Assembly (NCBI RefSeq): GCF_037042905.1
Contig: NC_087261.1
Location: 10,478,001-10,542,000 of the forward strand
Source of the DNA: Lytechinus pictus
Lineage: Eukaryota
DNA length: 64,000 nt
Direction of reading: 5' to 3'
Shown here: positions 2,900 to 63,000 of the stretch, one piece after another
Position numbering within the stretch: position 1 is the stretch's first letter
How the letters are laid out: the number at the start of each line of letters is the position of its first letter
The notes under the pieces: generated by a model
Told to the model about the DNA's origin: nothing
Seen by the model: only the letters and a program-made list of their open reading frames with translations
Databases searched by the model: none
Position numbers and translations under genes: made by a program

Positions 2900-3332
2900 C
2901 CCTGAACACGCAACGCATGTATCGCTTCATAGACATAAAATACACCCCAAACCCTGGGACTTTTTACGCGTTTTTTTTTCAATGGCCTTAACACGAGCGC
3001 ACACCAATAATAGTTGAGTGCCCGCCCCTCGCGTTGGCATACTTCATCAAAATTCCATCGCCAAACACCCATCTTCAATTATTCAAGATCATCCTTCTCT
3101 GGAATGTATATGATTATGTCAGTGATTGAATGGAGAAAGAAAAAAATAGATTAGATACCATTTACAGAATAACAACACCACAACAATAAAACCCTTCCAT
3201 TTATTAACATTGACAGGCTGGCTGGTGAAATCAAGTGTGTGCAGGTTCATTAATAGTATTCTGAACTTTTCTTTGTCGATGAACTATACACGTGCGGATC
3301 GGATAATAACAAGCCACCTTGCCTGCTTTGAA

Positions 3333-4004: not shown

Positions 4005-4594
4005 AGGACAAGTTCACCCCAACAAAAAATTGATTTGATTAAAAAGAGAAAAATTCAACAAGCATAACACTAAAAATTTCATCAAAATCAGATGTAAAAT
4101 AAGAAAGTTATGACATTTTAAAGTTTTGCTTAATTTCACAAAATAGTTATATGCACATCCTGGTGGGTATGCAAATGAAGAGACTGATGATGTCATCCAC
4201 TCACTATTTCTTTTGTATTTTATTATATGAAATAGGGAATATCCTATTTTTTTCCTTGTCAAGTGAAACAACGATTAATTCCTCCCTCAACATGTGGCAT
4301 GAGCATTGTTTAATGCTATATGATTCAGTCAAGTTGGGCCTTATTTTCAAATCTATAAAAAATGAAATATTGTATAATTCAAACAATAAAAAACAAAAGA
4401 AATAGTGAGTGAGGGACATCATCAACTTTCTCATTTGAGTTGTGCATATCACTGTTTTGTGAAAAATAAGCAAAACTTTTAAGTGTCATAACTTTCTTAT
4501 TTTACATCCAATTTTGATGAAATTTTCAGCATTTTGCTAGTTTGATTTTTTTCTATTTATTCAACTCAACATTTTTCTGGAGTGGACTTGACCT
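4005..4594. mobile_element. Kolobok-type MITE, copy 1
   Basis: TTAA target duplication (4001-4004, 4595-4598); AGG..CCT termini; long imperfect TIRs; second copy at 17206-17815. Confidence 0.8.
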
Positions 4595-4770
4595 TTAAGA
4601 AAAGACGAGAGGGCATTGCCATGGTGTACTGAAACACTAATTGTTTTTTTTTCAAGCGTATATAAATACAGGCTTTGCCTCAATTATAAGTTAATCATTT
4701 TAGTGGTGATATCGTGATCAAGTTATCATGGTGTGAATGGATTGCAAAGTGAATAAGAATCGTGTTCTAT

Positions 4771-35559: not shown

Positions 35560-37510
35560 AATTAAAGAACCAAACGTTGTTTTCTGACCAAGACATCGTA
35601 AGTAGTTTGTCATGCCCACGATTCAATAACACACTAAAGGAACATAAGGAAAGCGCTGCATAGTTTAGGAGGAAGAGGCATTCTACATTCGGCAAATGAA
35701 TATCATGATATATACGGTTACTCCGACGAATACGAATCTGAATAACTGGAAAATATATGGAAGAGTTGTTAAAGCAGGGGATACCGAAGGAAGTAATTTG
35801 GGGTGTCAATAACGACATGTTGGAAAGGTTTTAACAGGATTGCTGTCCGGGGATGGTGTCGTTCGAAAATCGTTGCGTAGCGATACCAGGGTGTATAGAT
35901 CAATATGAAAAAAATGTCCGACCAAGAAAAATTCAAACTCTTGCACAGACACGGTAGGCCTTTCGTGCTGAAAGAAAATTGGTCCAACGGGTCAACGCGC
36001 CTGTGATAACAAATCTTTCATTGATAGCTATCTCGTGTACATTTCTGCAGATTTCTGCAGCCTCCTCCTTTTATTAACATCCACGCTGGATCAAAAAAGG
36101 ATACATATCATGGAAAGTTCTATACAATGGACCCATAGACGGGGACTTACAGATAGACGAGGTGGATTAATTTTCCATAAAATCTGACTTGTATATATGT
36201 ATCATATTGCTGATGGGTATAACTTTTTCTTCATTGTAAGTATGTTTCACTATAGTAATGGACATGGGGAAATAGGTTTCGAAAACATGACAATGTAAAT
36301 ATGGACAATATTTAGGCCGATCTACAAGCTTAAGTGGAAATATTTAGAGGGTAAGTCAAACGTTGTCATTTTCCCCCAAACCCCTACCCCTCTTTTTTCA
36401 TTTTATTAAAAAATTTACAAGCATGTCAAAATTGCCTGAGAAGTCAAATTGGATAAGAAGCAACTTTTGAGAAGAAAACACAAAGTCGAAAAAAATTTCG
36501 ACGAAAATTTTTCTGACGAGAAAAGATCATACTATGATTGCCCTCGTTCCTGGAAGTACTAACTGTTCAAGAGGTTCATGAAAGCACTTTACAAAGGAGC
36601 TGCTTTTCAGAACTGGTCATAATGTCGATACTCAGTGGGAATGTGATTTCATGAAAGAAATGAATCAAAATGATGAATTACGAATGTTCACTAACAAAAT
36701 AAAACGCATCGAACCTCTAAATCCTAGGGATGCCTACTAAGGTGGTCGAACAAATGCTACCCAACTAGTCAGGGAAGTAGGAGACAATGATAAAATTAGT
36801 TATGTGGATGTTTGTATCCATGGGTATGTAAATATTAAGAATTTCCCATCGGACATCCACGAATCATTACTGAAAACTTTGAATCACCTGAGAATTATTT
36901 CGGGTTAATTAATTGCACCGTCTCCCCTCCTAGAGGACTTTACCATATCGTACAAACAATAAATTACCTTTTCCTTTGTGTCGTAGTTGTAGTGAGAACA
37001 AATTGAGACACTGTTCACATTAGGAAGAACGTTACCTGACGGCTACATCGGTAACAGAAGAACTAAAAAAGGCTATGACCCTGGGTTATCGTATTATCTC
37101 GACATTTGAAATATGGCTTTACGACGAATCGTCTCAATACGATGTATAACAAAACAAGGGTCTGATCGGTACAATCCCACGGTATTTGGGATAAGTTTGG
37201 AGTCCCTAGAATACTTGGAACTCACGCATGTCATCAACCTTTAATCGGATGAAGGAACGTCCTGGACAGGTCTCAGGAACAGACAACCTCTTACAATTGG
37301 AAAAGGTGTAAAGATAGCAGATAAGAAGTATGACAGGGGTCTATTCACAGAATATGGGAACACATTCCTAGAATGAAAGCAAGAGGCGAGTGGTTGGCCT
37401 TTAAATTGTATACCAAACAACGATCAATCTTTGGAATCTCCTGAAATAAAAGAAGCACGTAAGACTTACATCGAATCGTATCATGAACATGAAGGTGTAC
37501 TCCTCAATGG
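35560..37510 (+). pseudogene. heavily decayed Polinton/Maverick relic 1 (ORF-X fragment ~35760-35990 and pPolB fragment ~36520-37510)
   Basis: Hand translation across stops and frameshifts gives KEVIWG..DMLERF*..CVAIPGC..MSDQEKF, then LVPGS, WECDF, PLNPRDAY*GGRTNA, YVDVC, PIGHP, YFGLINC, FPLCRSC, TEELKKAMTLGY, KQEASGWP, YHEHEGVLL; all collinear with relic 2. Confidence 0.85.
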
Positions 37511-37749
37511 CAGTGTCCCATGTAAGGATATGAACCATCCAACTTTTACGATCTTATCATTGCAAAATGCGTTGTGTATCTTATTCAACCATGCAAGAAT
37601 TCCTGGATGCTTATCCAAAATGGGCAACGGAAAAGATGTATGACTAACAATTATGTTTGAACTTGGCGTCTATTACGCCACGTCTTGGAACTATCACCAA
37701 ACTAGAATTGGCGGAAGAAGGATGCACCTTAGAGATATGGGACAGCACT

Positions 37750-38627: not shown

Positions 38628-39690
38628 ATGGCTCGATCTTCAGAGGAATCATTTAGTTTCCGTAAATTCGAGGTAACCTCGCCTCTTAACAAAGATGTCC
38701 TTGATCTACGAGGATATTCTTCACATAAAGCGTTTTACAATAGCTGAAATTATTATCCTTACTTTATCGCGACTATATTAGAAAACTTGATAAAAGATGG
38801 AGAAGATTATCAAGAAATGGAGAAAGATCCAAAAATAAGAGGAAAATCGATGGAAGAGATGGAAAATCAGGGGGTTGCAAAGGAAGTAATTTGGGGAGAT
38901 CACAAAGACATGCTGGACAGGTTTGAGAAGGATTGTGTTCCGGGGATGGCGTCGATGGAAAAAAGTTGCGTTGCGATACCAGGGTGTATCATCTCCGATC
39001 ACTACGAAACAATGTCAGACCAAGAGAAATTCGAGCTCTTAGGTAGGCACGGCATGCCTTTCGAGTTGAAAGAAGATTGGTCAAAAGGGTGGAAGAGACG
39101 CGTTCTTCAACGGCCAGATCGTAAACATGATACATGTGAACAACCTCAGCAAACTAGACGAAAGCCTTCTAGAGTCGAAGTCTTGGAAAAGAGGCTTGCT
39201 GATGTTCATGGGGAATATGTCAACCTCCAAAAAGGGCATCGGCTCTGTACACACGAGCACACTGCACCTTTGGTCAGCGAAAGAGTTGCTGGAATAGTTG
39301 AAAATAGTGTGTTCAGTGACTCATATTGTCATCATCAATATCAGTTAGATGAAATTAACGTAATCAATACAGGGTTAAGTAGAAATGCTGAGAGTGAAAT
39401 GGAGCTGCATAAAATGAACGATAAGCTTGCTTATTATTACATTTCTCTACATGGTAAGAAAAATTGTTAAGAAGTACCTAAAGCAGGTAAATACGGCTGT
39501 CTTGGAATACAAAATACTAACTGTTAATGCAAATGTTCCGTATAATGTTAGGGCAGTTGGTGTACACTACGATTGGAACTATTATCATGGTAATCCAATG
39601 CTTGTCTGGATGTGGGTCATAGTTCCATTCCCAATCCTGCTAGCAATGGAGTTGCTCCATCTATCGTATCAAGCCGTATCTACTTTTTGA
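38628..39690 (+). pseudogene. Polinton accessory ORF-X, unknown function
   Basis: ATG 38628 is in frame with the 38787-39470 ORF across one TGA (38745-38747); a probable A-run frameshift at ~39460 continues into the 39427-39690 frame; homologue in relic 1. Confidence 0.6.
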
Positions 39691-39936
39691 CACTTGCAGT
39701 AAGTAGGAAATTTACTTTTCTATCTTAAATTACCGATTACTATTTGAAACAAACTATTTAGAGTCGATTTATTATATGACATAAAAATATTCTATGCATA
39801 ACATGATTTAACCCGAGAAGATGGAATTCTGTAAATGGATGTTACTTGTATCGATATGTTATTCATAAATGTTTAGGCCATGTCATCTGCATTTCTAAAT
39901 TCTAAAACAAAATATATATGTCTATTTCAGAAGACC

Positions 39937-42900
39937 ATGGCTAGTCAGTGGACATCTCAGGATGAACATCAATATATTCAAGCTAGGCAAGTACTTGCCA
40001 GCTTGGAGGAGCGACGCAAACGACACCAGGCAAGGAGGGCCAATGAAAGGGCGGAATTGCTAGATGCAACACGCGGATTTCATCCGTTCGGTCCTCGCCT
40101 TCTTTGACCACGGAGGAGTATCCCGTTATCCCTGAAACTCCCGATGACGAGGGGGAATATCCTGTTATTCCTGAAACCCCTTCTGAAATGGTAAGTTTAT
40201 CATCTTTTAATATTTGAGTCAGTGTATATATGAACAGAAAAAGATAAAGCTTGAACAATAAACACAAGTGTTGATGAAACCAGTCTGACTTGTATGTTGT
40301 TATTTTTTCTTTACTTCTACGTTACAGATGGTGTCTGAAAGCCCTACAAGGGATGAAGAGGAACGCATGGAATCCGAAATAGATCCCTCAGATTCTGAAA
40401 TGGTACGTCCCTATCCTTGCTATTGTATACCCGTTTTTTTAAACTATTTTGGGAAAAAATATTTTTAAAATGTATGCAATAGTTATGTAAGCTTTATCAT
40501 TATAATCTAATTGCGTTTTATTCTTTTTTCATTTATTCAATTTAGATTCTGCCAGATAGTAGTCGGGATCTGTTTGACTCTCAGAAAAGCAGCGCTCTCG
40601 ATTCGAATACTCTCGAAAGTGAAAACAGCAAAGCCCCTGAATCGGATAACGTGGCTTCCGAAGAAGTAAGTAATTTCAATCTTTAAATATGACGTTACCT
40701 AATGAAGCAATGCTGGAGAATATCAAATGACTTAAAATAAGAGTATCTAATATGCTTACTCTAATTCCGCTTTCTTCTTTTTTTTGTGTGTATGCATATC
40801 CACAGGTAAACATGGAACATTTTTACGATGTTGTTGAGGAGCAAGAAAGAGATGCACCCCGCTTCGGAGGACGCGTGACGGATTTTAACATCGTCGTGAG
40901 ACCGTTGCATCGGCTTGTTGAGGAGATGGGCTCCCTCGAAGTTATAGGTAGATTATTTTCTAGTATTATTTCACGCCTAACCGAGGGTTTCTTGAACGGT
41001 GATCTTGTAGGTTTCATTCTGTCAGGTTCCAATTTACGTCAGGATGTAGGCATTCCTCTGACTCGATATGATCAACTATCAGTCGATCGAATTTTAGCTT
41101 TGTTGGAGCAAATTTTACAATCCAACGAAGATTTTAACATCTCGGAAGGATTCAAAATACGTTTAGTCCATATTCGTATGCCGCGAGGAGGTAAGGGATC
41201 AGAAAATATGATTCCCCTTGACAAATTCATTCGCAAAAAGTGTAGATTTATCCAAATTACAAACAAAGATGAGCTTTGCCTTGGTAGAGCACTAGTAGTA
41301 GCCATGGCACATGCTCATAAAGAGGAGGATCCTGCTAACTTTCATCAAATCACTCACCCTAAAAAATACACGACCCAATTTGATGCGGCAAAACAACTCT
41401 TTATAGACTCTAATGTACCGGAGGGTGTTTGTGGAATCCAAGAAATAGAAACATTTCAAAATATCCTGACAGAGCGAGGGTACCAGATTACCGTCTATGT
41501 CAATGGTGGAGCCCACGGCAGGATATATGCCGGACCACCCAATAGGCATTTTCTTTCTTTATTCTATCACAACAATCACTTCGATGTCATCACTAAGATG
41601 CCAGCATTTCTTCGCAAATCATATTTTTGAAATACCTGTCTAAAGGGATACGATATGAAGGCCAAGCACAAGTGCAAAGATACATGCAGTGCCTGTAAGA
41701 GTGAGACAAATTGTGTATTGATTAAAAGAACAATGTGTGAACGATGTGGGCGTGTGTTCAAAAGTCAAGAATGTTTCGACAACCATCTTAAACAGGTAAG
41801 TGGTAATAAGAGTGTATGTCGGTTATTTTTCAAATGTAAACAGTGCAATGTAATGTTAGATAGCACCCGCGGCAGTGACAAGACCCATGATTGTAGGTTC
41901 GGGTATTGTGAACGATGTCGTACTACGGTATCAAAGGAGGGTCATCGCTGCTTTATGATTCCTCTGCCCAAGAAAAAGAAGAACAAAGCGAAAAATCAGG
42001 AAGAGAGGAAGAAAGGAGACGATACCCAAAAGTTTATTTTCTACGACTTTGAATGTCGTCAAGATGACAAAGTCGATGAAAATGATCATGGTTCAGTCTT
42101 TAAACATGTACCCAATCTTTGCGTAGCAATGAGAGTGTGCGGGCAGTGTTTTGACAAACAAGATGCATGCCCTGATTGTGGGGTACGTGAACATGTTTTT
42201 AGGGGGAAAGACACTTTGGACAAGTTTGGGGAATGGTTATTTGGCATAGAGGAAGATCACAGGAGGGTCATTGCCATTGCTCACAATGCTCGATCCTACG
42301 ATTCACAATTCATTCAGGAGTATTGTCTAAAGTCGGGGGTGGTACCTCAAGTCATCATGAGTGGTGCTAAAATTCTATCACTCACTTTAAATGATGTAAA
42401 ATGTATAGACTCACTTAGTTTTCTTGCCATGCCATTGTCTTCTTTTCCTTCAACCTTTCAACTGAAGGAATTGAAAAAAGGGTTCTTTCCGCACTTTTTC
42501 AATACCCTCGAAAACCAAGATCATGACGGACCGACCTTGCCACCTAAAAAATATTACGATCCAGATGGGATGTCAACAGAAAAACGCGACGAGTTTGATG
42601 TTTGGTATGCGCACCATCAAAACGACAATTTTAACCTTCAAAGAGAATTACTAGAGTATTGTCGTTCTGATGTCCAAATTCTGATGGAAGGTTGCATGGC
42701 TTTCAGACGTCTCTTTATGAGCGTCACGGATAACATCGACCCCTTCCATAACATAACGATTGCCTCAGCCTGCAATACTGTATTTCGGACGCAATTTTTG
42801 AAGGATACAGACATAAAGATCGACACTCAATCATTGCCTTGAAATGGCTCGAATGGGTTAGTCATAACGAGGGAATTCAAATAGAGCATGCGCGTAACGG

Positions 42901-44606
42901 TGGTGAACATCGAATCGGCAACTACAAAGTGGATGGTTACGATTCAGCAACGCGGACTTGTTATGAATTTTTAGGGGATATTTGGCATGGGTGTCCACAC
43001 TGCTACAAAAGGCGTGATTTGCTTGTTCCTGGTTCCAGTACCACCGTTCAGGAGGTATACGACCAGACAATGTATAGAATAAATGCATTGAAGAAACAGG
43101 GATATCGCGTCATCACGATGTGGGAGTGTGACTTTGCAAAATTAAGACGCGAAAACAAGACGCTACAGACGTTTTTGGAAAAACTACAGTTTCGGGATCC
43201 TCTCAATCCTCGGCATGCTTTTTACGGGGGGAGGACAAACGCGGTGAAATTGAGTCATAGAATTCAGGGTAATGAGAGAATCAAATATGTAGATGTTTGT
43301 AGTCTTTATCCTTGGGTTTGCAAGTACGGTAAATATCCCCTGGGTCATCCCGACATTATCACAAAGGATTTCGAGGATATTCAGCGCTATTTTGGATTGG
43401 TGAAATGTAAAGTCTACCCACCTCGACAACTATTTCACCCTGTTCTCCCATACAGGAATGAGGAGAATAAGCTTCTCTTTCCTTTGTGTCGCACATGCGC
43501 CAACGAAAAGCAATTAAACTTCAAAATGTACGCATAGCGATGAGGAAAGGGCCCTTGAATCTACGTGGGTTACGGAGGAAGTAAAGAAGGCAATAGAATT
43601 GGGGTACAAGGTTGTAGAACTGTTCGAAGTGTGGCATTATCCTCACTTTGACCAATACAATCCTCGAACCCAGGAAGGAGGACTCTTCAGGGATTACATA
43701 GATCTGTTTTTGAAAGTCAAACAGGAATCAAGCGGATGGCCCTCCGAATGTCATTCCAATGACGACGAGGTGTCCGCCGATATACAAAAAAAGCGCGCAA
43801 ATTATGTGAGACAATATCATGAAAGAGAAGGTGTGCTCTTAGACCCTTTAAAAATCAAAGCCAATAAAGGACTTAGGGCTGTGAGCAAGATTTGTCTTAA
43901 CAGCTTTTGGGGCAAGTTTGGGCAGCGGAATAATCTTCCAAAGACAGTCTTTACGGTGGAACCTGAAGAATTCTTCGCACTGGTGTCGGACCCCAAATTG
44001 ATCATTAAATATGTCGACTTCCCTACTTCGTATATGGCGCACGTACAATATGTTGAGGAGGATGACTTTTTAGAAGTCCTCCCCAACACAAATGTGGTAG
44101 TGGCTGCCTTCACCACGTGTTGGGCTCGTCTGAAGCTCTATTCGTACCTCGAAGAGCTTCAGAAGAATGTGCTGTATTTTGATACAGATTCTATCATACA
44201 CCTCAAGAATGATGAAGTAGAAGATGTCCCCACTGGGAATTTCTTGGGTGATATGACGGATGAATTAGAAAAAGATTTTGGGGTGGGTAGTTATATTACG
44301 GAACTTCAGGCCTTGGGACCAAAAAACTACAGCTACCAGGTTTTCTCAACCAAACATGGAAAAGAAATGCCCGGAGCTTGCAAAGTACGTGGTATCACGC
44401 TAAATTATAAAAATGCAAAGCTGGTCAATTTCGACACACTCAACGAGCTCGTGCACGGTGAACGCACTCACACCACCGTTACAAATGCGCATAGAATCGC
44501 GAGGATGCGTACCCACAATATTGTATCCCGCGTGGAAAATAAAATCCATCGTGTGGTATATGATAAGAGGGTATCCGATTTTAACACTGTTCCATATGGG
44601 TATTAA
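39937..44606 (+). pseudogene. polB: protein-primed family B DNA polymerase (pPolB) polyprotein of Polinton, spliced N-terminus
   Basis: Exons 39931-40190, 40328-40402, 40546-40665, 40806-44606. Motifs: DELCLGRA / NNHFDV (vOTU-like), Cys-rich Zn region, FIFYDFE, AHNARSYD, YCRSDV (exonuclease), KVDGYD..YEFLGDIWHGCP (VSR-like insert), YGGRT, DVCSLYP, KICLNSFWGKFG, YFDTDS, GPKNY, KVRG. Lesions: frameshift ~40072, TGA 41628, deletion/frameshift ~42805, frameshift ~43520. Confidence 0.92.
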
Positions 44607-45417
44607 GATACATATGTTGTATTTCTACCATTGATACTCTTTACCTTCTAACATTCTATATTTGCATTGTATCTCACCTCCAAATTTTCCTATGTTATAT
44701 TTAATTCACGCGCTACAAAGAATACTTTATAAATCAAATATTTTTATGCCAAATTTTGTGTCATATTATTGCAAGCACTCGGTGCTACCTGATGATTGGT
44801 GTAGTGTATGATTATTGCTCTTTGTTTACTTAGTTATGTAAAGGATTTCAGAATGGTGCAATATATATATACTAAGAAAATTCTTGCCATTTAATTTGTT
44901 CGTACTTCTGCGAGTGTGTGTGTGTTTGCATGTTTAGAACGAGAGAGAAAGAGGGTTTTTCAATCGTATCCCTTATTCGCCTTCGGTTAGACGTGAACTA
45001 TTGTAGGGAAAATAATCCACCACCCTCAATTTGAACGACGATGTATATGTATATTGTTATATGTAATCAAGATATATATTTTTTATACCCTGTGCTTATA
45101 CATTATATATTTGACTTTTCAAAATGTCTGAAAATAAAAACAAAACAAATCAAATTCATTGTTATCGATCGTCTCTTTTTATTGTAATGTGTGCATAAAA
45201 AGGAGTGTGTATGACACGATAAGCGAGAGAGCATGAGGGAGGTCTTTTCGCCGATGTTTGATAAGCAATAAGTATGTTATAGGTAAATGCTTAAAAAAAA
45301 ATATATATACAAAAAATAAAAAGTACGAGATGTATAAAAGAACCGCAAAAAATCAGAGAGACTGAATGTACATGTATAAAGGAGAGTGATTCTGACAAGT
45401 TGTAGGCATTTGGTGGG

Positions 45418-46060
45418 ATGGACGTTCGCCTGAAACATCCATTTACAGCTCTCATAGCAGGACCGACGGGGTGCGGTAAAACTCAATTTGTGAGGAAACT
45501 CCTCAAACATCATGAAAAATTGGTGGATAAACCTTTTGATAAAGTCATTTGGTGTTATGGGGAATATCAGGTGGGTTATGCTGATATGGCGAGGGATATG
45601 CCATTCATTGAATTTCAGGAAGGTATTCCCTCGGATTTGGAAGGGATATTTGACCGCAGGAACTCGATCTAATCTAATTGTTCTGGATGATTTAATGTCC
45701 CAGGCAAATCAGGATCAAAGGGTGTCGCACCTTTTCACTAAAGGTAGTCATCATCGCAACCTTTCCGTTATTTTAATAAGCCAGAACCTATTTCATCAGG
45801 GAAAAGAAAGTAGAACCATCAGTCTCAATGCCCACTACATGATCTTGTTCAAAAAACCACGCGACTCTTCTCAGATTGTCCACTTGGCAAAACAAATTTA
45901 CCCGCAAAATTGAAAATTTCTGCAAGAAGCCTATAAAGATGCAACGGGTCGACCTCATGGCTATCTCCTCGTAGACCTCAAACCAGACACGGATGAAAAA
46001 TTACGGTTAAGAAGTAATATTTTCCCTGGAGAAAGAAATGTGGTGTATGTCATGAAATAA
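45418..46060 (+). pseudogene. Polinton genome-packaging ATPase (A32/FtsK-HerA superfamily)
   Basis: HPFTALIAGPTGCGKT (Walker A), LIVLDDLM (Walker B), FTKGSHHRNLSVILISQNLF, SRTISLNAHY, RPHGYLLVDL..LRLRSNIFP; frameshift ~45660 and in-frame TGA 45911. Confidence 0.9.
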
Positions 46061-46072
46061 CTGTGTTTGCCC

Positions 46073-46110
46073 TATAAAGAGGTTGGGCAAAATGGAATGG
46101 TCATCAGTTG
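46073..46110 (+). promoter_or_regulatory. TATA + initiator upstream of the pX-like gene
   Basis: TATAAA at 46073 with TCAGTT ~30 nt downstream; similar TATAAA elements at ~45333 and ~45375 precede the ATPase. Confidence 0.4.
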
Positions 46111-46153
46111 ACATATAAATACCTTTGCGAAAGCAACAACAGACTCATTCGGC

Positions 46154-46474
46154 ATGTCTCGCCGTGTAAAGAGCAACATTCCATACCTGCACGTCTTGGC
46201 TAGGGGAACCCCGGCACAAAGAAAAGGTGTACTGCAAGGTGCTAAAAAGGATTTGATTGAAACAATTTGTGAATGCGCACTTAATATCCTTCACGGCACT
46301 GTTCCTTTGTCTGTTGTGGAAAAAAATAAACTTCGTCAGCATAAGCACAAGTTGAGAAGCCTTTGTAATAAAAAGATCTCTCTTCAAAAAAAGAAAAAGA
46401 AGCTGGTAAACCAGAGAGGTGGATTTTTACCATTTTTGATTGCTCCAATCCTGGCTAAAATATTCAGATCGTAG
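46154..46474 (+). CDS. small conserved Polinton virion-type protein with adenovirus pX-like C-terminus, 106 aa
   Basis: Intact ORF; ICECALNILHGTVPL core, basic stretch, QRGG|FLPFLIAPILAKIF hydrophobic tail. Confidence 0.8.
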   Translation: MSRRVKSNIPYLHVLARGTPAQRKGVLQGAKKDLIETICECALNILHGTVPLSVVEKNKLRQHKHKLRSLCNKKISLQKKKKKLVNQRGGFLPFLIAPILAKIFRS

Positions 46475-46494
46475 AAAAAAGGATAGCGACCACC

Positions 46495-47285
46495 ATGCAG
46501 TACGCCAAAAAAATGGTGCTGGTACCCCACGAAACCGTTCAGCATGTTAACGCTTCGCACGAGCATGGAGTAGCTCCTACCTTCAAAGGTCTTGCCGGAT
46601 TAGACGAGCAAATGCAGACTATTTTACGCAGGCAGGACATTCCAGAGGATGAAAGAGTGAAACTCTATCAGCAAGCCCTCATGGGGTACATCAACCTACA
46701 TCACAAACTCAATGAACCGATAGCCCTACAGGTGGAGAATGTACCGGGGAATAATCTTCCTGCGATCACGTCTGCAAAGTCAAACGAAAAGGCAACGCTT
46801 CATACCGCTCCTTCCACCCCCCCCCCTGGATGCAGCGTGTCAAAGAGAGTGTCCCTAAAACACTGGTCCAGAAAGCAGGGCAAATCATGCATCTCCTTCA
46901 ATCTGCACCTGATCATCGCATAGCTATCAATGACAAGGGAGAAATTTTGTTGGATGGCAAGGCGCTAGAAGGAACGCACATTGTCGACCTAGTCAATGAT
47001 GTGTTGAGAAAGAGGAAGAGTTTTTCTCCAAAAGGATGGCAAGAATTTGCACGGGTGATGGCTACTCTGCATCCCCCGAGGGAGCTCGTGGGAAACCAAG
47101 ATAGATGGAACTTCATGCAACGACAAATTTCTACCGATTCCTTACTTCCCCGAACTACAGAATTTCAAGATCACAAACCAGACAACTTGAATACCGTGGA
47201 GGTGTTTGCTAGAGCGGATCACCTTCCTGCAACGAAAAGAGGTCGACCCAAGAGACAGTCCTCCCCAGACTGGATCCAGTATTGA
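46495..47285 (+). pseudogene. conserved uncharacterised Polinton protein (~263 aa)
   Basis: MQYAKKMVLVP..LDEQMQTIL..LYQQAL and VPKTLVQKA..GTHIVDLVNDVLRKRK..PKGWQEF blocks typical of Polintons, split by a frameshift in the C-run at ~46820. Confidence 0.7.
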
Positions 47286-47439
47286 TAAACATCGGTATTC
47301 AACTTTCTTATTCATTTCATGACACTTCTGTTCTCGAGCAACATGGGATGTTGGCCTCCGTCACTGAGGCTACAGTTGGAACGTGTCCGATGTGCCTTGG
47401 CCTGCTGCAAAGGAAACATCAATATACACGAATCATCCG

Positions 47440-48328
47440 ATGGAGGACATCCTAAAAAAAGGTGTATTACGATCCGGAAAACCCTGCCGGTTTTGGTGTT
47501 GTAGATGCTGTTTACCACGAGCTAAGGAAACAAAACAAAAATATAAAGAGGTCGGACATAAAGGAATGGTTGACAGAACAATCGACTTACACACTTCACA
47601 AACCCCTACGGAGAAGGTTTAAACGAAACAGAGTCATCGTCTATGGCATAGATCATCAGTTGCAAGTGGACCTGGTTGATATGCAGGCTCTCTCGCGACA
47701 AAATAAAGGATTCAAATATCTCCTGACCTGTATTGACATATTCTCCAAATATGCTTGGGTTTTACCCCTCAAAGACAAGAAAGCGGCGACCCTTGTTGAG
47801 GGCTTTCAGAAAATCTTGAAAGAAGGCCGAAAGCCATACAAACTACAATCTGATAAAGGAGGGGAATTTATCAACAAACCCTCTCAGCGCATGTTGAAAG
47901 AAGAAGACATCGTATTCTTTACTACTCAGAACGAAACAAAAGCTAGCGTAGTAGAAAGATTCAACCGAACCCTCAAAGAGAAGATGTTCAAGTACTTCAC
48001 CAGTCACAACACACGCAAATACACGAATGTACTGCAAAAGTTTGTTTCAGCTTACAATCGTCGCAAGCACTCGAGTATCGGCCGCCCACCCTCGGAGGTT
48101 AAGGCAACGAATGAGAAGGATGTATGGATGACGTTGTACGCTGACCTACCTAAAAAGGGTTCCAAGGAGGCAAAGTTTCGAATGGGAGATCACGTGAGGC
48201 TTTCCATAGCAACGCAGGTTTTCAGGAAAGGGTATCTTCCAAAGTGGACGGAAGAGATATTCTCCATCAGCCGACTTATTGGAAGGACACCCATCGTCTA
48301 CAAAGTCAAGGACGCCGGTGGAGAAGTC
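47440..48328 (+). pseudogene. Polinton retroviral-like (c-integrase/rve) integrase, C-terminally truncated
   Basis: MEDILKK(frameshift)VYYDPENPAGFG, YTLHKPLRRRFKRNRV, DDE triad LQVDLVD / LQSDKGGEF / KASVVERFNRTLK, FRKGYLPKWTEEIF; homology stops at VYKVKDAGGEV. Confidence 0.92.
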
Positions 48329-49169
48329 AAAAAGAAAAAAATATGTGAATGGGGGCGAATTGTTTGATGGGAGACATGTTGATCTTAACATAAATACAAT
48401 CAGGTATACTGTAAACAATGTTGATCATCAGTGAAAAAAGAGAATTCAGCAATGTTTCATCATGAAACACTTGCTGGCCCCTAAAGAAAAGATTATCCAT
48501 TATAAATAATAGAAAAGATTTTTTTTTTTAGGGGGCCTTGTATTCAGAAGTTGGATTCCTTTACTCTTCGTCTCAATCCTAAGATGAAAGAAGTCTTGGT
48601 ACATGAGGACCAGATATTTTTACAGAATATGTAAACACATTTCTGAAACTAAAACAAGAATTAAGTGGTTGGTCTGCAAACTGCAAACCTCATGGTATTT
48701 GTTGGAATGTTGGGATGCAAATAGCTTACAGGATATGATCATTTTCTTTACAAATTGATTGCCTTTAATGTACAATAGAACTTTTTTAGTAATTATATAA
48801 TGCCAGTGTGTTATGTAACTTTTGTAAATCATGTGTTATCGACATTTGGATGTGATAGGCTCTTGGCCATGATGATCAATAAACACCACGTGTAACCTTA
48901 ACTCTATCTGAAAATTGCCTTTATTGCTATTATTGTCTTTGCACAAAACCTTTTCTCCTGTCAAAATAGGACACAAGAAGCCTCCAGACTTTCGACTCTT
49001 CTATAGGGTTTAAAAAAAACTGAAGGCATTCGTTATGATGAGTCAAATTGAGATGTTTTTCTTACGAGGAATGTGTCTACAGCTTTTTGGAACGAATACT
49101 GCTCTCTCCTGGGACACATGGCTGTATACATTCATCAAGCCGATACCATGCCCTGTCGTATCTTACTCA

Positions 49170-52100
49170 TTACTCCTTGATCTTGATGATGCAAAACTTG
49201 TTCCTGATGTCTTGGGCGGGGTCAATCTTTGAGAGGATGATGAACTGGAAGTTACATGTGACGTGAGGTAAGAACTTGTCCTTCTCGTAATCTGGTCCAT
49301 CCGCATCAGTGATAAGGTACTCGTACCTGCATAATAAATAGAGATTGATGTATGTTTAAAACATTAATAAATGAAAAGTAAATTCAAAATGATTGTTTTT
49401 TTTTTAGTTTATTTTATGCTGATAAATGACAACAAGAAAAAAACAATCATGCAAAAATCAGGAAAAGCATCCCTTTTTTGGCACCTGGGTATAATTATAA
49501 TCAATTAACGGGATTTCATTATATATCAATTGGGCAGTTTAAACACTTCCATTTATACTGGAAGTGAGAAACTTCAATTGTAAAGCTTACTTTTTAAATA
49601 AAAGCAGGGATACAAAAGAAGCAATATGATACAGTATTAAACATTTATAGTATTCTAGCACATGGTCAAACAGAAAGAGACTGGACCAAGACTAGCTCAT
49701 TACGATACAAACAGAATAATGCATCTAAATGGGTTTTTTACAAACTTGCTGTATAATTTAAATGAACGATGTTGGCATCAGGTTCACAACAGAACAAACA
49801 AACCCATAGGTAGCACTTTTTATTTAGAAAAATTTGAAAAAAAATATACTCACTTCTCAAGTATTGATTTGTCCAAGACATCATTCATGAGATCTTTGTG
49901 GATTTCTTCAAACCTATCTCTGCACGAGTTGAACATATCAGAGCCCCCAAAGTCGATGGTGAAATTATTGCCATATCTGTGGAGAATATATCGAGAAAAT
50001 AGACAATGAACCAATTTCAAACAATGATGAGAACAAGCCATGTGTGCCAAATGAACTATCTATACTAGGTCCTTATTCTTTCTTGCATGAGCCACCATAT
50101 GCATAATCAGGAGGGATGTAATTAAAAATATGAAAAAATTAAACCATTTACAATTCACATGACTGCAAAAGGTGGTAAAGTCAGTTTCCTGTATATAATC
50201 ATGCGACTTGAAAACACAATTTGCATCACTTGAAGTCCGCTCCAACTCTGTCTGTGTTCAGTCTATGCAACATACAACATAAACTAAAGAAATATGTTTA
50301 AAACTTTACATAGGATGCCTATTCAACAACAAGTGGAACGCCTCTGGCAGTCTCGCCTGCATTACGCAATGCGATATAGCAGCAGTGCTTCCTTTGAAAA
50401 TATCTAATGAATGTTATTCACAGAATAAAACACTAATATGATAATAAAATATTATGTCCATTGACCCAAAATGACCTTTGACCATGATCATGTGACCTAA
50501 GACATGTGCAAAACAATCATTCATACTTGATTATCCTTATGTCGATGTTTCATGAGCTAGATCCATAAACTTCCTTAGTTATGATGCCAATTGATTCAAC
50601 ACATACTCCCAACACGGCCAGAGTTCATTGACCTTTAAATGACCTTTGATCTTGGCCATGTTCCTGAAATGCACACAGGATATTCAGGGATACATTGCTG
50701 CTCTTATGTCCAAGTTTCATGAACTAGATCCATTGACTTTTAAAGTTATGATGACAATTCCACAAATACCCCCATCATTACCAAAGTTTGTTGACCCTAA
50801 ATGACCTTTGACCTTGGTCATGTGACCTGAAACTCGCACAGGATGTTCAAGGATACTTGATTGCTCTTATGTCCACATTTCATGAACTAGATCCATAAAA
50901 TTTCAAGGTTATGATGACAATTCCTCAAATAACCCAAACATGGCCAAAGTTTGTTGACCCTAAGTTACCTTTGACCTTGGTCATGTGACCTGAAACTCGC
51001 ACATGATATTCAGGGATACAGAGTTGCTCTTATGACCAAGTTTCATAAACTAGATCCATAAAATTTCAAAGTTATGATGACAATTCCTCAAATAACCCTA
51101 ATATGGCCAAAGTTCGTTGACCGTGAGTGACCTTTGACCTTAATCATGTGACCAGAAACTCAGGCAGGATCTTCAGTGATACACTATTAACCTTAGATCT
51201 ACGTTTTATGAACTAGGTCCATATACTTTTGAAGTTATGACAACATTTCAAAAACTTAACCTTGGTTAGGATTTCGATATTGATTCCCCCAACATGGTCC
51301 AAGTTCATTGACCCTAAATGACCTTTGACCTTAGTCATGTGACCTGAAACTCAGACAGGATGTTCAGTAATACTTGATTAGCCTTATGGCCAAGTTTCAT
51401 GAACTAGGTTCATATACTTTCTAAGTTATGATGACATTTCAAAAACTTAACCTTGGTTAAGATTTCAATGTTGACGACGCCGCCGCCGTCGCCAAAGCGG
51501 CGCCTATAGTCTCGCTCTGCTATGCAGGAGAGACAAAAATTACATTCACTTCATTGATGATCTTTTCATTTATTCATCAGCATATTAAAAATTGTAATTT
51601 TGAAGATAAATGAAAGTAGTTGCATTATAAACACTGACTTTAAGTTTAATGGCAAGAAAATTATGTAAAACCAAGGATTAATTGTCTGATGTCACTGGGA
51701 CCCACTGTATATAGTATTATGGTATAACTTCCCTGAAATCCTTGATTTTGATTGGCTGCTGCAGCTGCACATCGTTACTAATGATTAATTGTTACCATTG
51801 TAGCTAATACCATTGGAGTTCAAAGTTACCATAAATTAAAGTAACATTTATGCAATGGGAACCTGGTACAGAACTTTACATCAGGGCGCTGTGAACAATT
51901 GTTTTACACAGGGTTGATGATTTAAATTTGGCAAGCAAAAGACAGATAAATTTGACAAGCAAAAAAAATAAAAACTGTTTCACAACAAAATGCGGGAGGC
52001 TTCAGCCCCCCACTTTTTTCCAAAACCGTGTAAAAAACGTAAAAATGACCATGTGATTGTGATTTTTTGCATGGTCAGCCTCCCCCCACTTTTGGCTCAG

Positions 52101-53935
52101 CCCCCTATGAAAACGGTTCCGCCGCCCCGTATTTCAGAGCTGAGGTATATGTAGGCCTACTTCGGGGCCCCGATTTAGAGTTACGATTGATCCTCTTTGT
52201 AAGACGGGGCCCGGAAAACAAACAAACGGTTTCGGCAACCTCCCCGATGATTGTCTTTCCCATGACCCCCCCCCCCATGATATTCAAGAAGTGGTTTTAA
52301 AAAAGAGAGGAAGGGGGGAGAGAAAACGTGAAATGAGAGTGCAGGGGCCTGGAAACGATTTTTGAAGAGGTCGGGGTGCTTGTTTAGAAACATAAAAAAA
52401 GTTAAATGCATGCAATAAAAATCTTAAGCACACATCCGTCAAGCTTACCAGCTAATTGGTTTTTCGTTGTTGGTTTTTTTATTTTATCTATAGGTCTATG
52501 TTTTTGTTTTGTTTCATCGTAAATACTTTCCCCTCTCTATGCAACCCATTTGTACATTTTCTAAGAAAAGGCGCTCATTTTATTATTCAGCACCCCGCTT
52601 CCCAGGTCCGCGAAGGAGGGGAAATTTTAAGACCAGTCGTTGGTTGATTGTGCAGCTCCCTCACCCCAGTAATTTAATACTAAACGTCTTTCCCCCTGTC
52701 ATAAAAGGCCGCGCCCCTATACACCCACCTGACAGGTACCTTATACCGGTAACCCCATACCAACATGTATATTTTTTCGAAGAGAAACCAAGTTTCTGTT
52801 CCCTTCTGCATAAACACAACACCAAACAAACAGATAATAAAGATACACAAAGAGGGCTACCCCGGGGGGCTACAAACCTTATTGATCCAATAAGACGTTT
52901 CCTTATCGTTTCTGCTTGCATGTCCGACGGAGAGATGGCGTCCAAACAATTACCTCCTTGGTAACGAAGAAATACCGCTGCTCTCCCGCCGCTATCGACG
53001 ATCATCGGCCATTTCCCTGTCGACTTGATCTTCCCGTCATCATCCTTGAGTACGTCCGAGAGATCTTTGAGTTCGATCTCGATGATGACCGGCTTGGGCT
53101 GTTCGTCAGTGGTTGACATCTTGGCTAGCTTGTCAGTCACATCTACAAGACGACAACATATCAAAGGATGAATTTATTTCAGTTAATATTGTCCACTATA
53201 GTGTAAATAGTGAGAAAAGATATAGGGAAAAAATGTGAAATAAAAGATTTTTTTGTATTTTACTATACTAAAAGCCTGGATCTAGGCATTGACGTAAAAT
53301 ATAAGCCTGACGTCTGGATTGTCATGAAGAAGCGACACTAATTTTCTCAATTAAGGCACATTTTCAAATAATCACGAAAATTCCAGACATAACCAAGGAT
53401 ACAAATAAATTTGCAAATGTATCAACATTTTTCAAGAGGCCTAATTTAATATGATGAAAACAATATATGCTTATATATACTCAAAACTATTAATTACTTA
53501 TAGGCCTTTAGGGGACTTAAATATTGAGAACACTGAGAAATCAATAACATCGTCATATGGCGATGTGGGTTCAAACAAAAACAAATAAGGTTCCAAATTA
53601 AATAAAGCCGTCAGCCTTATAATATTACATTACTCAACAAAAATGACTTTTCCCAACTTTTCGCTATAGTATTAAGGAAACGCCCATGTCATGAGTAGCA
53701 TATTTCAATTAGCAAGAAAAATAGGAAAACAATCAGGAATATTCAGAATCAGATTATTTCCTCAACATGAAGAAAAGATCTAGTCTATACGATAAGTTTT
53801 ACCTTTTGCATCCTTGCTTGATGTGGCGCCTTTCTTTTGAGATGAAACTGGAGTTGTTTTTCTGCCGCCATTTGCACCGGTCTTCTTTGCGGGAGTTGCT
53901 TTCTTCGGGACCGCTGTTGGTTTCTTTGGAGGCAT
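49170..53935 (-). CDS. short IQANK1 paralogue (Lys-rich N-terminus + IQANK1 C-terminal domain; no IQ or ankyrin), 225 aa
   Basis: Exons 53935-53803, 53142-52878, 49976-49854, 49326-49170; GT-AG, phases 1,2,2; 678 nt open. MPPKKPTAVPKKATPAKK..; GKWPMIVDSGGRAAVFLRYQ..LIGSIRYG..; same intron positions as the neighbouring IQANK1-like exons; AATAAA on the minus strand at ~48920. Confidence 0.82.
50328..51538. mobile_element. non-autonomous Helentron/HINE-like element, copy 1 (~6 x 163-bp repeats)
   Basis: AACAAG start, subterminal inverted repeat GTCTCGCCTGCAT / ATGCAGGAGAGAC, terminal hairpin, internal tandem repeats, A-rich insertion site without TSD. Confidence 0.7.
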
Positions 53936-56731: not shown

Positions 56732-58304
56732 CCGTGTGAGTAACCCCCCCCCCCCAAAAAAAAAAAACAAGTGGAATGCCTCTGGCCGTCTCACCTGCAT
56801 CACGCGATTCAATATAGCAGCAGTGCTGATTTTGAAAACTACTATGACTCGCACAAGATGTTCAGTGATACTTGGTTACTCTTATTTCCACGTTTTATGA
56901 ACTAGACCAATACACTTAAAGAGATATGATGGCAATTCAACAAATACATGTACCAGCAACGTGGCCAAAGTTCTTTGACCTTACATGACCTTTGACCTTG
57001 ATCATGTGACCTGAAACTCGCACAGGATGTTCAGTGATACCTGATTACTCTTATGTCCAAGTTTTATGAACTAGACCAACACACTTTCAAATTTATGGCT
57101 GTAATTCGACAAATACCCCAATTTGGCCAAAGTTCATTGACCCTAAATGACCTTTGACCTTGATCATGTGACCTGAAACTTGCACAGGATGTTCAGTAAT
57201 ACTTGATTACTATTATGTCCAAGTTTCATGAATCAGATCCATAAACTTTCAAAGTTATGATGGTAATTCAACAGATACCCCCAATTTGGCCAAAGTTCAT
57301 TGACCCTAAATGACCTTTGACCTTGATCATGTGACGTGAAACTCATGCAGGATGTTCAGTGATACTTGATTAACCTTATGTATAAGTTTCATGAACTAGG
57401 TCCATATATTTTCTAAGTTATGATGACATTTCAAAAACTTAACCTTAGGTTAAGATTTTGATGTTGATTCCCCCAACACGGTCTAAGTTCATTGACCCTA
57501 AATGACCTTTGACCTTGGTCATGTGACATGAAACTCAGGCAGGATGTTCAGTAATACTTGATTAACCTTATGGCCAAGTTTCATGAACTAGGTCCATATA
57601 CTTTCTAAGTTATGCTGTCATTTCAAAAACTTAACCTCAGGTTAAGATTTGGTGTTGACGCCGCCGCCGTCGCCGTCGGAAAAGCGGCGCCTATAGTCTC
57701 ACTCTGCTATGCAGGTGAGACAAAAAATGACACGAGCACATAATCATTGTATAGCCGAAAGAAGATTTTCTCCCAAATAATTTGATACCATATTTATGTG
57801 GTATGTCTTCACACTTGGATAATTAGTATATAGGTATTCTTTGCAGTGGTGTAAATTTTGTCTTGCGTCAAAGTAAGGCACAACTCCAATTAATGAATCC
57901 AGATGTCAATGTCATAACTCATAAGCCTGGGTTGTTTTAAAATCCATTGCAAAACACTTTTCAATAATTAACATTAGAATTGTTTAATAAACACTTTTTA
58001 CTGAGTATCAATTCTCGAGTTAATTTTATTGAATAGAGGTTTGCAAACCGGCTTACTGACTCGTGTAGGATTAAGACATCATTGGCATCTGAATTCATTC
58101 ATTGCAGCCATGCCTTATCAAACTTTACATCACAATAAAAAAATACCTCCTGATTATCCAAGCGTCAACACATACCACATAAATATGGTAACAAATTATT
58201 TTGGAGAAGATACTCTTACAGGCCATGTAATATGTATGTGTTCATGAAGATTTTTCCCTTAAGCTGAAGATTTGTGAGGTGTCATTTTTTTTTACTCACA
58301 AGAA
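56732..58304. mobile_element. Tc1/mariner-type MITE, copy 2, split by Helentron-like insertion
   Basis: TA-CCGTGTGAGT at left, ACTCACAAG-AA-TA at right; 57727-58304 homologous to 5359-5927. Confidence 0.6.
56766..57724. mobile_element. non-autonomous Helentron/HINE-like element, copy 2 (~4 x 163-bp repeats)
   Basis: Same termini and repeat unit as copy 1; subTIR GTCTCACCTGCAT / ATGCAGGTGAGAC shows a compensatory change. Confidence 0.7.
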
Positions 58305-60080: not shown

Positions 60081-63000
60081 TCAACCTAGTACTACCCTGA
60101 GTACATAGAACCTCTCCATTATCGCGTCATCCAGTTCATTCTTCGAGACTAGGAGCATCTTGAAGTTCTGGACCCTGTTCTGCATGAATTTGTTCTTGTT
60201 GTATTCCTCACCATCGCTGTCTCTCACAAGGTATAGATATCTGAAGAAAAAAATACAGATGAATATGTGGGACCTCTTGGGAACACTGATATCTGCTCTA
60301 TTTAGGGTGCAAACAGGCATAATATTCCCCTCTGAAAAATAGCCAAGGGTCGCTAAGTCACCACCGAGGTCCGAGGCGCCCCGGTTGGGGATACAAGCTC
60401 TTGCATAGTAAAGAAATCGAAAGTGATTTTTAAAGGTGAGTCTGCATGATAGGTTTACCATTTCACTTAAAAAAGCAGTAAAAAACAGCATGAGAATGTT
60501 CTTGGGCAAAGGATTTCACATTAAAAAAAAATCTGAAAAAAATTATTTTAAATATCGGAATTCTGTTTTTAGTGGGGAGAATATCATGCCTGGGTGCAAA
60601 TAAGACATGTTTTGCATCTATGGTATGGGAAAAATAATGCTTTGAGTTTGGCGATTATTACGAAGACTCCGCTGCATTAGTAAGGTTGGTCAAGATAATG
60701 GGGCAAACTATCACTAGCAAGGCATTGTAGATATTAATGAAATGATTACAATTAGTGAAAGTGATGTATCTAATTACCATTTCGTTTCTTTGGATCTGGC
60801 CATCTTTCCAAAGCTAATCTAGGGGGAAGCTGGCAATTCATATATTGCAAAGGAAGTGATAGTTTGTCTCATTAACACTGGTAAAAATAATAATTGTACA
60901 TTTATATTGCGCAATTACTACTCAACTGTACTGCCTACAGGCGCTCTGGCATTCAAGGAATTTTTTCCTACTGGGTACCCATTCACCTCACCTTGGTTGA
61001 GTGCAGAACAAAATTTGGGTAAATTTCTTGCTGAAGGAAAACATGCCATGGCTGGGAATCGAACACACATCCCTCAGATTGAAAGACAAGAGTCAAAACC
61101 ACTACACCACGATGTACCCATTCACTGAAACCAGTCCAAGGCTTCATATTCTTTTGATTCAAATTTAAAGTTTTTTTTCTGAAAAGCTTCCGTTTGAATA
61201 CTTGTTGGATAAAACGAGATTGGACTCTATGTGGAATAAAATACTCACTTTTCATTCTCTAGTATACTCTTATTAAGGATGTCTTCTAGCAGTCCTGGCT
61301 GAACTTCATCAAACCTTGAAACACACGTCTCAAACATGTCCACCTCCAGGAAATCAAGCACAAACGGTTTGCCATACCTGAGAAAGGATGCAAAAACATG
61401 TAAAGTGGAAATATGTCACCATGAAAAATGATTTATTTCTATTAAGTGGAGTGTTTAGACAAGAAGAATATACCAATGACAACAGGAGTTTGGATTGAGA
61501 ATAATGCTGGAAGTTATTCTAAATTTTGTGCAGTAGTTCAGTCAAATTATTTCAATGTTTTACTAAACAGTCCAGTTGTGGAAAGAATAAAACAAAAATT
61601 AATTCATAGTCTAACAGAATGACCACCCAGTCGATCAATTGTGGGCCAGAGTTCTGGGGGGAAAGAATATCTTTCTAGTATGTGACAAAATACCATGACA
61701 TTCTTTATGTAAAGATCTAATAAAGTAAGAGAGAGAGAATGAAAAAGGAAGAGAGAGGAAGAATGAGGGATAGAAAGAGAATTATGGCCAGAGTAAGAAA
61801 GGTAGAAATGGAAGGGGCAGGGGGGGGGGGAGAAAGAAAATACGGGCAACCCCTTCCCAAATATCAATACGTAATAACAAACAAGTGGAACGCCTCTGGC
61901 AGTCTCGCCTGCATTACGCAATTCGATATACATGTAGCAGCAGTGCTGACTTTGAAAACAGCTATTAAATAATCATTCACAAAAGAATACTATGTCCATT
62001 GACCCAAGATGACCTTTGACCATGATCATGTGACCTAAGACATGTGCAAAACAATCATTTATACTTGATTACCCTTATGTCTATGTTTCATGAACTACAT
62101 GTGTAGAGCCATACACTTTCTAAGTTATAAAGCAAATTCAACATATACCCCCAACACGGCCAAAGTTCATTGACCCTAAATGACCTTTGATATTGGTCAT
62201 GTGACCAAACAAGCACAATATATTCAGGGATACATGGGTACTCTAATGTCCCAAGTTTCATGAACTAGATCTATATACTTTAAAGTTATGATAATTCCAC
62301 CAATTTGGCAATACCCCCACATTATCAAAGTTCGTTGACCCTAAATGACATTTGACCTAGATCATGTGATATGAAACTTGCACAAGATGTTCAGGGATAC
62401 TTCATTGCTCTTACGTCTAAGTTTCATGAACTAGATCCATAAAATGTCAAAGTTATGATGACAATTCCTCAAATACCCCCAACATGGTCAAAGTTCATTG
62501 ACCCTAAGTGACCTTTGACCTTGGTCATGTGATCTGAAACTCAGGTAGGATCTTCAGTTATACACTATCACTCTTATGTCTAAGTTTCATGAACTAGGTC
62601 CATATACCTTAGAAGTTATGACGACATTTCAAAAACTTAACCTTGGTTAAGATTTCGATATTGATTCCCCCAACATGGTCTAAGTTCATTGACCCTAAAT
62701 GACCTTTGACCTTGGTCATGTGACCTGAAACTCAGACAGGATCTTCAGTAATACCTGATTACCCTTATGTCCAAGTTTCATGAACTAGGTCCATATACTT
62801 TCTAAGTTATGACATTTCAAAACTTTAACCTTGGTTAAGATTTCAATGTTGACGACGCCGCCGTCTATAGTCTCGCTCTGCTATGCAGGCGAGACAAAAA
62901 TAATAATGAAAAACAACCACTTAACATACCTTATGGCTCCTAACACAGCACACCTTATAACCTCTGGCTGCATATGATTTGGGTTGAGGGCGTTGATGAA

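Follow-up and report, generated by a model that had tools for sequence, protein, structure and literature searches.

The window analysed here, a stretch of 64,000 nucleotides from the sea urchin Lytechinus pictus, holds the remains of a Polinton, a virus-like mobile element with its own DNA polymerase, pPolB. In this lineage the pPolB gene is very probably split at its 5' end by three GT-AG introns in phase 0, of which assembled reads show the third removed, removal of the first two being likely, and host splicing likely joins a leader of 150 residues to a predicted polyprotein of terminal protein (TP), vOTU protease and polymerase. What we observed are the splice sites with their phases, a sister copy whose leader is open, a family of 50% identity that has this layout too, and the third junction. 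Among invertebrate Polintons this spliced leader is a lineage feature; automatic annotation already includes it, and it was not found in print. Its introns are inherited and most likely constitutive; other Polintons have the leader in a single frame. The window copy itself is a dead fragment, unable to encode a full polymerase.

Exons and introns of the pPolB leader

The gene features of the window are given below, with the evidence on which each was placed.

39654..39698, + strand: remnant of a putative non-coding 5' exon; its donor GTAAGT at 39699 is present in the sister copy (C14) too; junction unseen in reads
39699..39930, + strand: putative intron of the 5' untranslated region (5'-UTR), 232 nt, from sequence; junction unseen in reads
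39931..40190, + strand: exon 1, ATG at 39937; Arg-rich predicted helix with the lineage motif W-x-x-x-D-E, then an acidic Pro-rich repeat
40191..40327, + strand: intron 1, GT-AG, phase 0, 137 nt; sequence, modelled by RefSeq; junction unseen in reads
40328..40402, + strand: exon 2, 25 codons (75 nt), acidic, predicted disordered; sequence and structure models
40403..40545, + strand: intron 2, GT-AG, phase 0, 143 nt; sequence, modelled by RefSeq (P0003/P0004); junction unseen in reads
40546..40665, + strand: exon 3, 40 codons (120 nt), Ser-rich and acidic, predicted disordered; sequence and structure models
40666..40805, + strand: intron 3, GT-AG, phase 0, 140 nt; joint in contigs of runs X5 and X6; codon position common to the C8 family
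40806..44606, + strand: exon 4 of pPolB, with TP-like, vOTU-like, Cys-rich, exonuclease and polymerase regions; PF03175, structure models, fold matches
about 40812-41177, + strand: TP-like domain in exon 4; structure models, fold matches
about 41217-41612, + strand: vOTU-like domain in exon 4; structure models, fold matches

Exon coordinates, all six splice sites of the three coding introns and their phases agree with a first-pass annotation made from the letters of the window. The acceptors read TTTCAG, TTACAG, TTTAG and CACAG and the donors GTAAGT, GTACGT and GTAAGT, while branch-point-like CTGAC, CTAAT and CTAAT lie 43, 39 and 45 nt before the acceptors of the three introns. With GT..AG ends, GTRAGT-like donors, a pyrimidine tract and a branch-point-like motif, the introns have the sequence features of the U2 type, that of the major spliceosome. 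Each intron contains stops in all three frames, and the GC content is 0.45-0.51 in the leader exons versus 0.25-0.30 in the introns. Exons 2 and 3 are open and in frame with VNMEHF at 40806, and the ATG at 39937 stands in ACCATGG, both as first annotated. The claim that exon 1 needs a restored base was likewise correct: the window copy has 254 nt from ATG to donor and goes out of frame at about 40070-40080, versus an open 255 nt in the C14 copy, where all splice sites are kept. An assembly error was ruled out as the source of this break, the window form being present in 6 of 6 raw reads and in contigs of runs X1 and X11.

The joint expected from removal of intron 3 was seen. Among the eight runs compared, X15-X17 are raw stranded RNA, and X5 and X6 are contigs guessed to be RNA; contigs of these latter two of the eight runs carry the exact joint 40665^40806 between GT and AG. 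Skipped-exon joints were found in none of the eight runs. As a test against chance, 979 acceptor-like sites in 158 kb of host DNA, taken on both strands, and 2000 shuffles were searched for a chain of three phase-0 introns like this one, and neither set gave any, by site rules that were set after the sites had been seen; the C14 and C8 copies pass these rules and the window copy fails them through its exon-1 break.

Upstream of exon 1, the first-pass annotation had overlooked the donor at 39699, which probably begins a 5'-UTR intron. A RefSeq model of the C14 copy splices to the acceptor of this intron too, from a donor farther upstream, and read depth over 39699-39930 was 0.16-0.34 as against 1.3-5 on the flanks (X15 and X16, few reads). 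In the C14 copy, the RefSeq model splices a 21-nt coding exon of the left terminal region (L002:595-615) to the exon-1 acceptor, and an older RefSeq version of the same gene starts inside intron 0.

The three introns were also compared with each other for an introner or tandem-duplication origin, which was tested and not established: pairwise z ranged from -1.0 to 2.3 in 15 comparisons. The modules of exon end plus intron 1 and exon end plus intron 2 reached a z of 2.8, a value equalled in 6 of 300 shuffles, which is a weak hint of duplication.

Copies, gene models and relatives

Two matches were found by DNA search of the genome, the window and C14 copies. By protein search, 23 of 28 candidates matched, and 13 of these loci were inspected. 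The element at C8 has 50-52% amino acid identity to the window copy in the TP-vOTU region and no DNA match in the leader. Nevertheless its leader has the same layout: three introns, all in phase 0, follow exons of 210, 105 and 210 nt, exon 1 is homologous, and the last acceptor falls at the codon where window intron 3 ends. The first Met of C8 exon 4 lies 51 residues into the TP domain, and hence splicing would be obligatory there. Between the window/C14 and C8 families intron sequences are unalignable, and exons 2-3 can hardly be aligned. This C8 Polinton (G000:C8:34657924-34675207, L031-L033) is itself nested in a Polinton of the type with a one-frame leader, whose outer inverted arms are about 91-94% alike.

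A third family (C6, C21 and C17b; 40% identical) has a homologous exon 1 followed by a single phase-1 intron of 856-874 nt. In all three of its pairs we counted no insertions or deletions (indels) in the exon and 4-10 in the intron; substitutions per base are not lower in exon 1 (13-17 in 202, versus 20-31 in about 855 for the intron), so that only indels differ. Over the three families, exon 1 keeps 10 invariant columns at 28-30% identity. In addition, the C3 and C5 copies have a 240-nt phase-1 intron after an unrelated exon 1, and four copies (C3b, C17c, C8a, C3c) have leaders of 192-533 residues in a single frame. Spliced and unspliced leaders thus coexist in one genome. The reading that the pPolB gene of this lineage has spliceosomal introns before the TP domain is supported by their conservation in relatives and by the third junction in contigs.

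RefSeq models from L. variegatus and those of the window, C14, C8 and C17b copies agree with our exon calls. Database proteins under the name Lytechinus pictus are identical to the window translation in every letter. The leader junctions are present in both models of the C14 gene (XP_063965780.1 and XP_054748806.1), which differ at the 5' end, whereas the models of the window locus (XP_063968601.1 and XP_063968602.1, LOC135157333) comprise exons 2-4 up to the stop. The L. variegatus model XP_041483336.1 has 1427 residues, that is, 150 plus 1277. Exon 1 is open in the RefSeq proteins P0001, P0002, P0005 and P0006. Loci with these junctions are LOC129254369, LOC135157333, LOC135155162 and LOC135157251 in Lytechinus pictus and LOC121430121, LOC121411962 and LOC121426824 in L. 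variegatus. Although their junctions are the same as ours, these models are all named "uncharacterized" and treated as host genes, and none is recognised as a Polinton polymerase. Splicing likely adds about 150 residues, as first annotated, but the extension was hidden only from open reading frame (ORF) callers.

Among protein relatives, three of the six members of the Logan cluster P0008 (about 60% identical) join leader and TP in one frame, and three begin at or just after the intron-3 position; two of the latter have a Gln directly before it, which likely reflects a CAG acceptor. An ENA protein from a 15.6-kb contig begins like the short P0008 members, at the intron-3 position. The start of the TP is visible in 111 of the best 150 relatives, and 64 of these 111 have leaders of at least 60 residues with a mean of 20% Asp/Glu. 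A disordered acidic leader is hence ordinary for these polymerases, and its division by introns is the distinctive part.

Of 80 metagenome loci, 13 were examined closely, chosen for a missing Met or a nearby acceptor, and full GT-AG readings were obtained for four (L089, L050, L063 and L076). L063 (1697-1775) and L076 (642-726) share a phase-1 intron site inside the TP domain, which L073 (about 861-977) and L075 (about 1005-1106) also fit; in this clade the TP fold itself would depend on splicing. A quick tree, built from 45 rows of which 11 have no label, placed the window, C8 and C6 copies with their relatives in one clade (Shimodaira-Hasegawa-like approximate likelihood ratio support 98) and the loci with an intron in the TP domain in another (96). 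The tree requires four changes of the leader introns, at least two of them forced, where L048, L105, L080, P0007, P0008 and P0173 were labelled without a full exon-intron reading, from an acceptor, the end of a protein or a gene model. Several gains, or gains and losses, are likely. Scans of IMG/VR with the window TP-vOTU region and with P0016 found no relative.

A separate observation concerns the polymerase part of another clade. In 14 of 22 ENA pPolBs (P0009-P0023, P0032-P0038) the resemblance ends right after a W-H-G-K stretch, and one ENA pPolB reads through about 22 extra residues back into C-x-x-C. These proteins suggest a short phase-1 GT-AG intron inside the polymerase gene, on protein evidence. 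When such an internal intron was sought in the 80 metagenome loci, 51 were contiguous, three had breaks other than introns and 26 were without the motif.

The Polinton fragment and its surroundings

The remaining features of the element and of the adjacent host gene are as follows.

39654..48326, + strand: Polinton fragment, both ends truncated, several genes broken; ORFs, Pfam and homology to the C14 copy
45406..46060, + strand: A32-like packaging ATPase gene, broken; ORFs and Pfam, C14 counterpart above the Pox_A32 cut-off
47440..48326, + strand: retroviral-like integrase gene, truncated where the fragment ends on the right; PF00665 and end of homology to C14
49167..53142, - strand: last three coding exons of a host gene, at about 52878-53142, 49854-49976 and 49167-49326, bounded by AG/GT and in one continuous frame

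The fragment is 98% identical to part of the longer C14 element and encodes pPolB, the A32-like ATPase, two small genes and an rve integrase; it is without terminal inverted repeats (TIRs), a capsid gene and a protease gene. The single long polB ORF of the first-pass annotation was incorrect. Exon 4 is interrupted by a stop (41628-41630) and by two breaks of the frame, near 42800 and 43520, and PF03175 scores above cut-off in three separate ORFs. All five raw reads that cover the stop (X15, X16) lack it, which implies that alleles or other copies differ there.

The identity of the longer copies as Polintons is supported by further genes. The integrase domain PF00665 is present in the window and C14 copies, in the latter with a C-terminal chromodomain (L028:3749-4816), and the C14 ATPase reaches 29.8 bits for Pox_A32 against a cut-off of 22.8; the ATPase gene is broken in the window. 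The C14 copy probably carries a double-jelly-roll capsid gene: by features, a 444-residue ORF matches clusters in which 14-30% of the members bear PF21738, with scores of 0.98-0.99. This ORF had no sequence match in Pfam or PDB, and a tblastn search against phage records gave none. A weak adenain-like protease match in C14 stays below the cut-off (PF00770, E 0.11), and the element also carries a gene for the single-stranded DNA-binding protein PC4 (L028:9270-9677, minus strand). While the C8 relative has TIRs of 98.6% identity, AG ends and a 6-bp target duplication, the inverted arms of C14 are only 75% alike and without clear termini. A small TIR-bearing element occurs twice in the window (4000-4600 and 17200-17820) and is 75-83% like the ends of C14; its copies are non-autonomous derivatives or else repeats of another origin that obscure the C14 termini.

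Directly left of the Polinton fragment lies an older, heavily decayed pPolB fragment at about 36590-37510 (window region 35700-37600). The segments 35741-35896 and 38834-38989 are 79% alike, and an ORF of 240 residues at 38748 (region 38748-39470) had no Pfam match. To the right, the exons of the minus-strand host gene gave a weak AAA_9-like lead (score 0.88-0.89), and we take them to resemble the C-terminus of the IQ/ankyrin-repeat protein IQANK1. Host DNA of the window also contains a 163-nt repeat family in three clusters (50440-51430, 56850-57610 and 61980-62830) and a 38-nt tandem array (3251-4120).

Proposed function of the leader, rival explanations and implications

The spliced RefSeq model P0002 was folded with AlphaFold2 from 20 sequences (mean predicted local distance difference test score, pLDDT, 54.6). 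It shows a helix at residues 8-45, pLDDT below 50 for residues 34-149, and folded structure from about residue 151, which is the exon-3/4 junction. A deeper model of exons 2-4 agrees (63 sequences, mean pLDDT 82.7), with the TP and OTU parts at about 90. The charge of the leader is divided: residues 1-56 include 11 Lys/Arg, and the other 94 include 29 Asp/Glu and 5 Lys/Arg. The leader does not show the fold of the TP domain (D1), since it consists of one helix and low-confidence coil and has no four- or five-stranded sheet with two helices and a linking Ser/Tyr loop. In exon 4, by contrast, an alpha/beta domain and then an OTU-like domain with invariant Cys and His precede the exonuclease, which is the order of the TP(D1)-vOTU(D2)-pPolB polyprotein described in 10.1101/2024.03.18.585575, and Ser residues stand in the loop where that work places the linking residue. 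The first-pass annotation had regarded the exons as an extension of the terminal protein; the leader does precede the TP domain, but exon 4 holds all of the predicted TP fold with its priming loop. Among viral proteins, the best fold matches came from adintovirus and mavirus polymerases (E 1e-8 to 6e-6) and from bidnavirus-like ones; matches to OTU folds are weak (E 1.3e-3 to 8e-3), and no solved D1 structure was matched in the fold comparison. The top PDB match is phi29 polymerase, P0005 matches PF03175 with an E of 9.6e-41, and Pfam gave no match above cut-off for the leader or the TP-vOTU region.

The pathway we propose begins with transcription of the element by host RNA polymerase II in the nucleus. 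The introns would be spliced constitutively to give one mRNA, translated from the exon-1 ATG. A cut by the vOTU protease, as proposed in 10.1101/2024.03.18.585575, would release a leader-TP, and the leader would stay on the TP and hence on the 5' ends of the genome. Exons 2-3 would form a spacer tolerant of length changes. For the Arg-rich helix, nuclear import or contact with DNA or polymerase is our leading but tentative assignment, made from composition and the structure model.

Several observations weigh against a constitutively spliced, functional leader. Junctions 1 and 2, which had been proposed as an RNA test along with junction 3, were seen in 0 of 8 runs, and the three raw RNA runs (85, 75 and 26 reads, with about 6% of each run read and three reads required for a joint) gave no joint at all. 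No RNA data set was on record as containing the stretch, which says nothing about expression. The X5 and X6 contigs are only guessed to be RNA and come from one study under a second species label, and one has 30 nt on its short side. Contigs of X1 and X11 (3.8 and 6.2 kb) are unspliced through all three introns, and one of X7 holds a piece of intron 2 and exon 3 with the intron retained. The RefSeq models may be ab initio. Moreover, exon conservation, the other test first proposed, is visible at greater distance only: at 98% identity the window and C14 copies differ by 5 substitutions in 455 exon bases versus 7 in 420 intron bases. The Met at position 3 of exon 4 in this family, in good context, makes a leaderless protein possible, and the function of the leader is drawn from composition and model only. 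On the other hand, the X1 and X11 contigs carry the flank and the exon-1 break of the window copy and are best read as host read-through, because the host gene on the minus strand has its end about 840 nt to the right of the fragment, so that its 3' read-through would run antisense to the element. First mates lie mostly on the + strand (wholly in X16), which would mean minus-strand RNA if the library is of the usual type. RNA over the window copy is thus likely to be mostly unspliced host 3' read-through from the opposite strand.

Splicing might instead act as a regulatory switch, in which skipping of exons 2-3, or intron retention in the soma or under piRNA control, sets the level of full-length pPolB; the P-element, for comparison, has a tissue-specific intron. 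All introns are in phase 0, exons 2-3 are multiples of three, RefSeq lists isoforms X1 and X2 at the window locus and an X2 for a relative, the two RefSeq versions of the C14 gene have different 5' ends, and unspliced pieces are present among the contigs. Nevertheless, we regard a switch as unlikely: the runs compared hold no skipped-exon joint, the two isoforms of the window locus differ by one Met only, the long unspliced contigs are better explained by host read-through, and sister families have one or three introns in differing phases. The suggestion that the leader is modular and possibly alternatively spliced was in this respect overstated. A wider version, that many invertebrate Polinton lineages independently placed introns before or inside the TP domain and that leader splicing gates replication, with TP bearing the basic helix made only from fully spliced mRNA, on in the germ line and off elsewhere by retention or skipping, is distinctly unlikely.

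That the upstream exons are spliced yet dispensable, pPolB starting at the exon-4 Met and the leader being a drifting 5' region or upstream frame, would suit that Met as well as the mostly disordered, length-variable leader and the poor alignment of exons 2-3 between families. It is quite improbable, however, in view of the C8 family, which has no Met at exon-4 position 3, of the invariant columns of exon 1 across three families, of leader exons free of indels where the intron is not, and of the 64 relatives with long leaders. We consider it hardly tenable that the exons are a captured piece of a host gene, or that the introns were gained by a copy after its death. Mavericks do carry intron-containing cargo genes near the left TIR (10.1101/2022.07.12.499685), and the window copy is degraded, but the layout is found within elements of two species, at several loci, is in frame with the core polymerase and follows the TP-vOTU tree; the intron position common to independent insertions largely refutes this explanation. 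With exon 1 as the query, Polinton-linked proteins were the only ones to turn up (1 among 221 candidates and 3 among 4852), which is weak evidence in the same direction. Constitutive splicing of an inherited leader remains our preferred reading.

In adenovirus, a related nuclear virus, the E2B mRNAs for pTP and polymerase take their start codon from a short upstream spliced exon. That exon adds few residues and the TP is separate, whereas the gene here encodes a polyprotein and its three leader exons supply 150 residues. The gene set here, with pPolB, A32-like ATPase, rve integrase and, in C14, a double-jelly-roll-like capsid gene, resembles that of animal Polintons/Mavericks (eupolintoviruses; pfam03175-type "adintoviruses", PMC8502044), from which it differs by the three coding introns of pPolB and probably a 5'-UTR intron. 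According to PMC8097293, intact vertebrate elements showed no introns in their genes, "in agreement with" Kapitonov and Jurka 2006, and 10.1101/2022.07.12.499685 describes core genes as intronless, with introns in cargo genes only. Eupolintoviruses of dinoflagellates (PMC12166617) do have spliceosomal introns inside polinton-like elements, in the form of introners; these are recent, transposon-made and mostly outside coding sequence, unlike the introns here, which are old, positionally conserved, situated in a core gene and without clear similarity to one another (z at most 2.3). D1 as described in 10.1101/2024.03.18.585575, where the word "intron" is absent, is without the N-terminal helical extension of PRD1 and adenovirus TPs; in our case a helix is predicted at the N-terminus, encoded by a spliced exon and separated from D1 by 100 disordered residues. 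Full-text searches, whose scope excluded supplements, Repbase entries and Kapitonov and Jurka 2006, Krupovic and Koonin 2015 and Koonin et al. 2024, found no report of introns in animal Polinton pPolB. Nothing on a spliced pPolB appears under intron or splicing in the accessible sections of PMC10748475, PMC8502044, PMC11296320, PMC12220804, PMC11071296, PMC12721341, 10.64898/2026.10.13.758929 and 10.64898/2026.07.28.741278.

The meaning of the finding is tempered by junctions that are already in RefSeq, by a leader that is a common disordered appendage and by regulation that has no direct support. Polinton core genes are described as intronless, and both screens for intact elements and pPolB models rest on ORF calls. 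If the split leader holds for invertebrate pPolB, published N-termini would be truncated and some "broken" elements may have been misjudged. Transcription in the host nucleus would be needed, which would favour an adenovirus-like nuclear cycle over a cytoplasmic helper-virus factory, and intron positions would mark lineages. Furthermore, junction reads would provide a clean assay of true Polinton expression as opposed to host read-through, a long-standing gap for which sea urchin embryos would be tractable.

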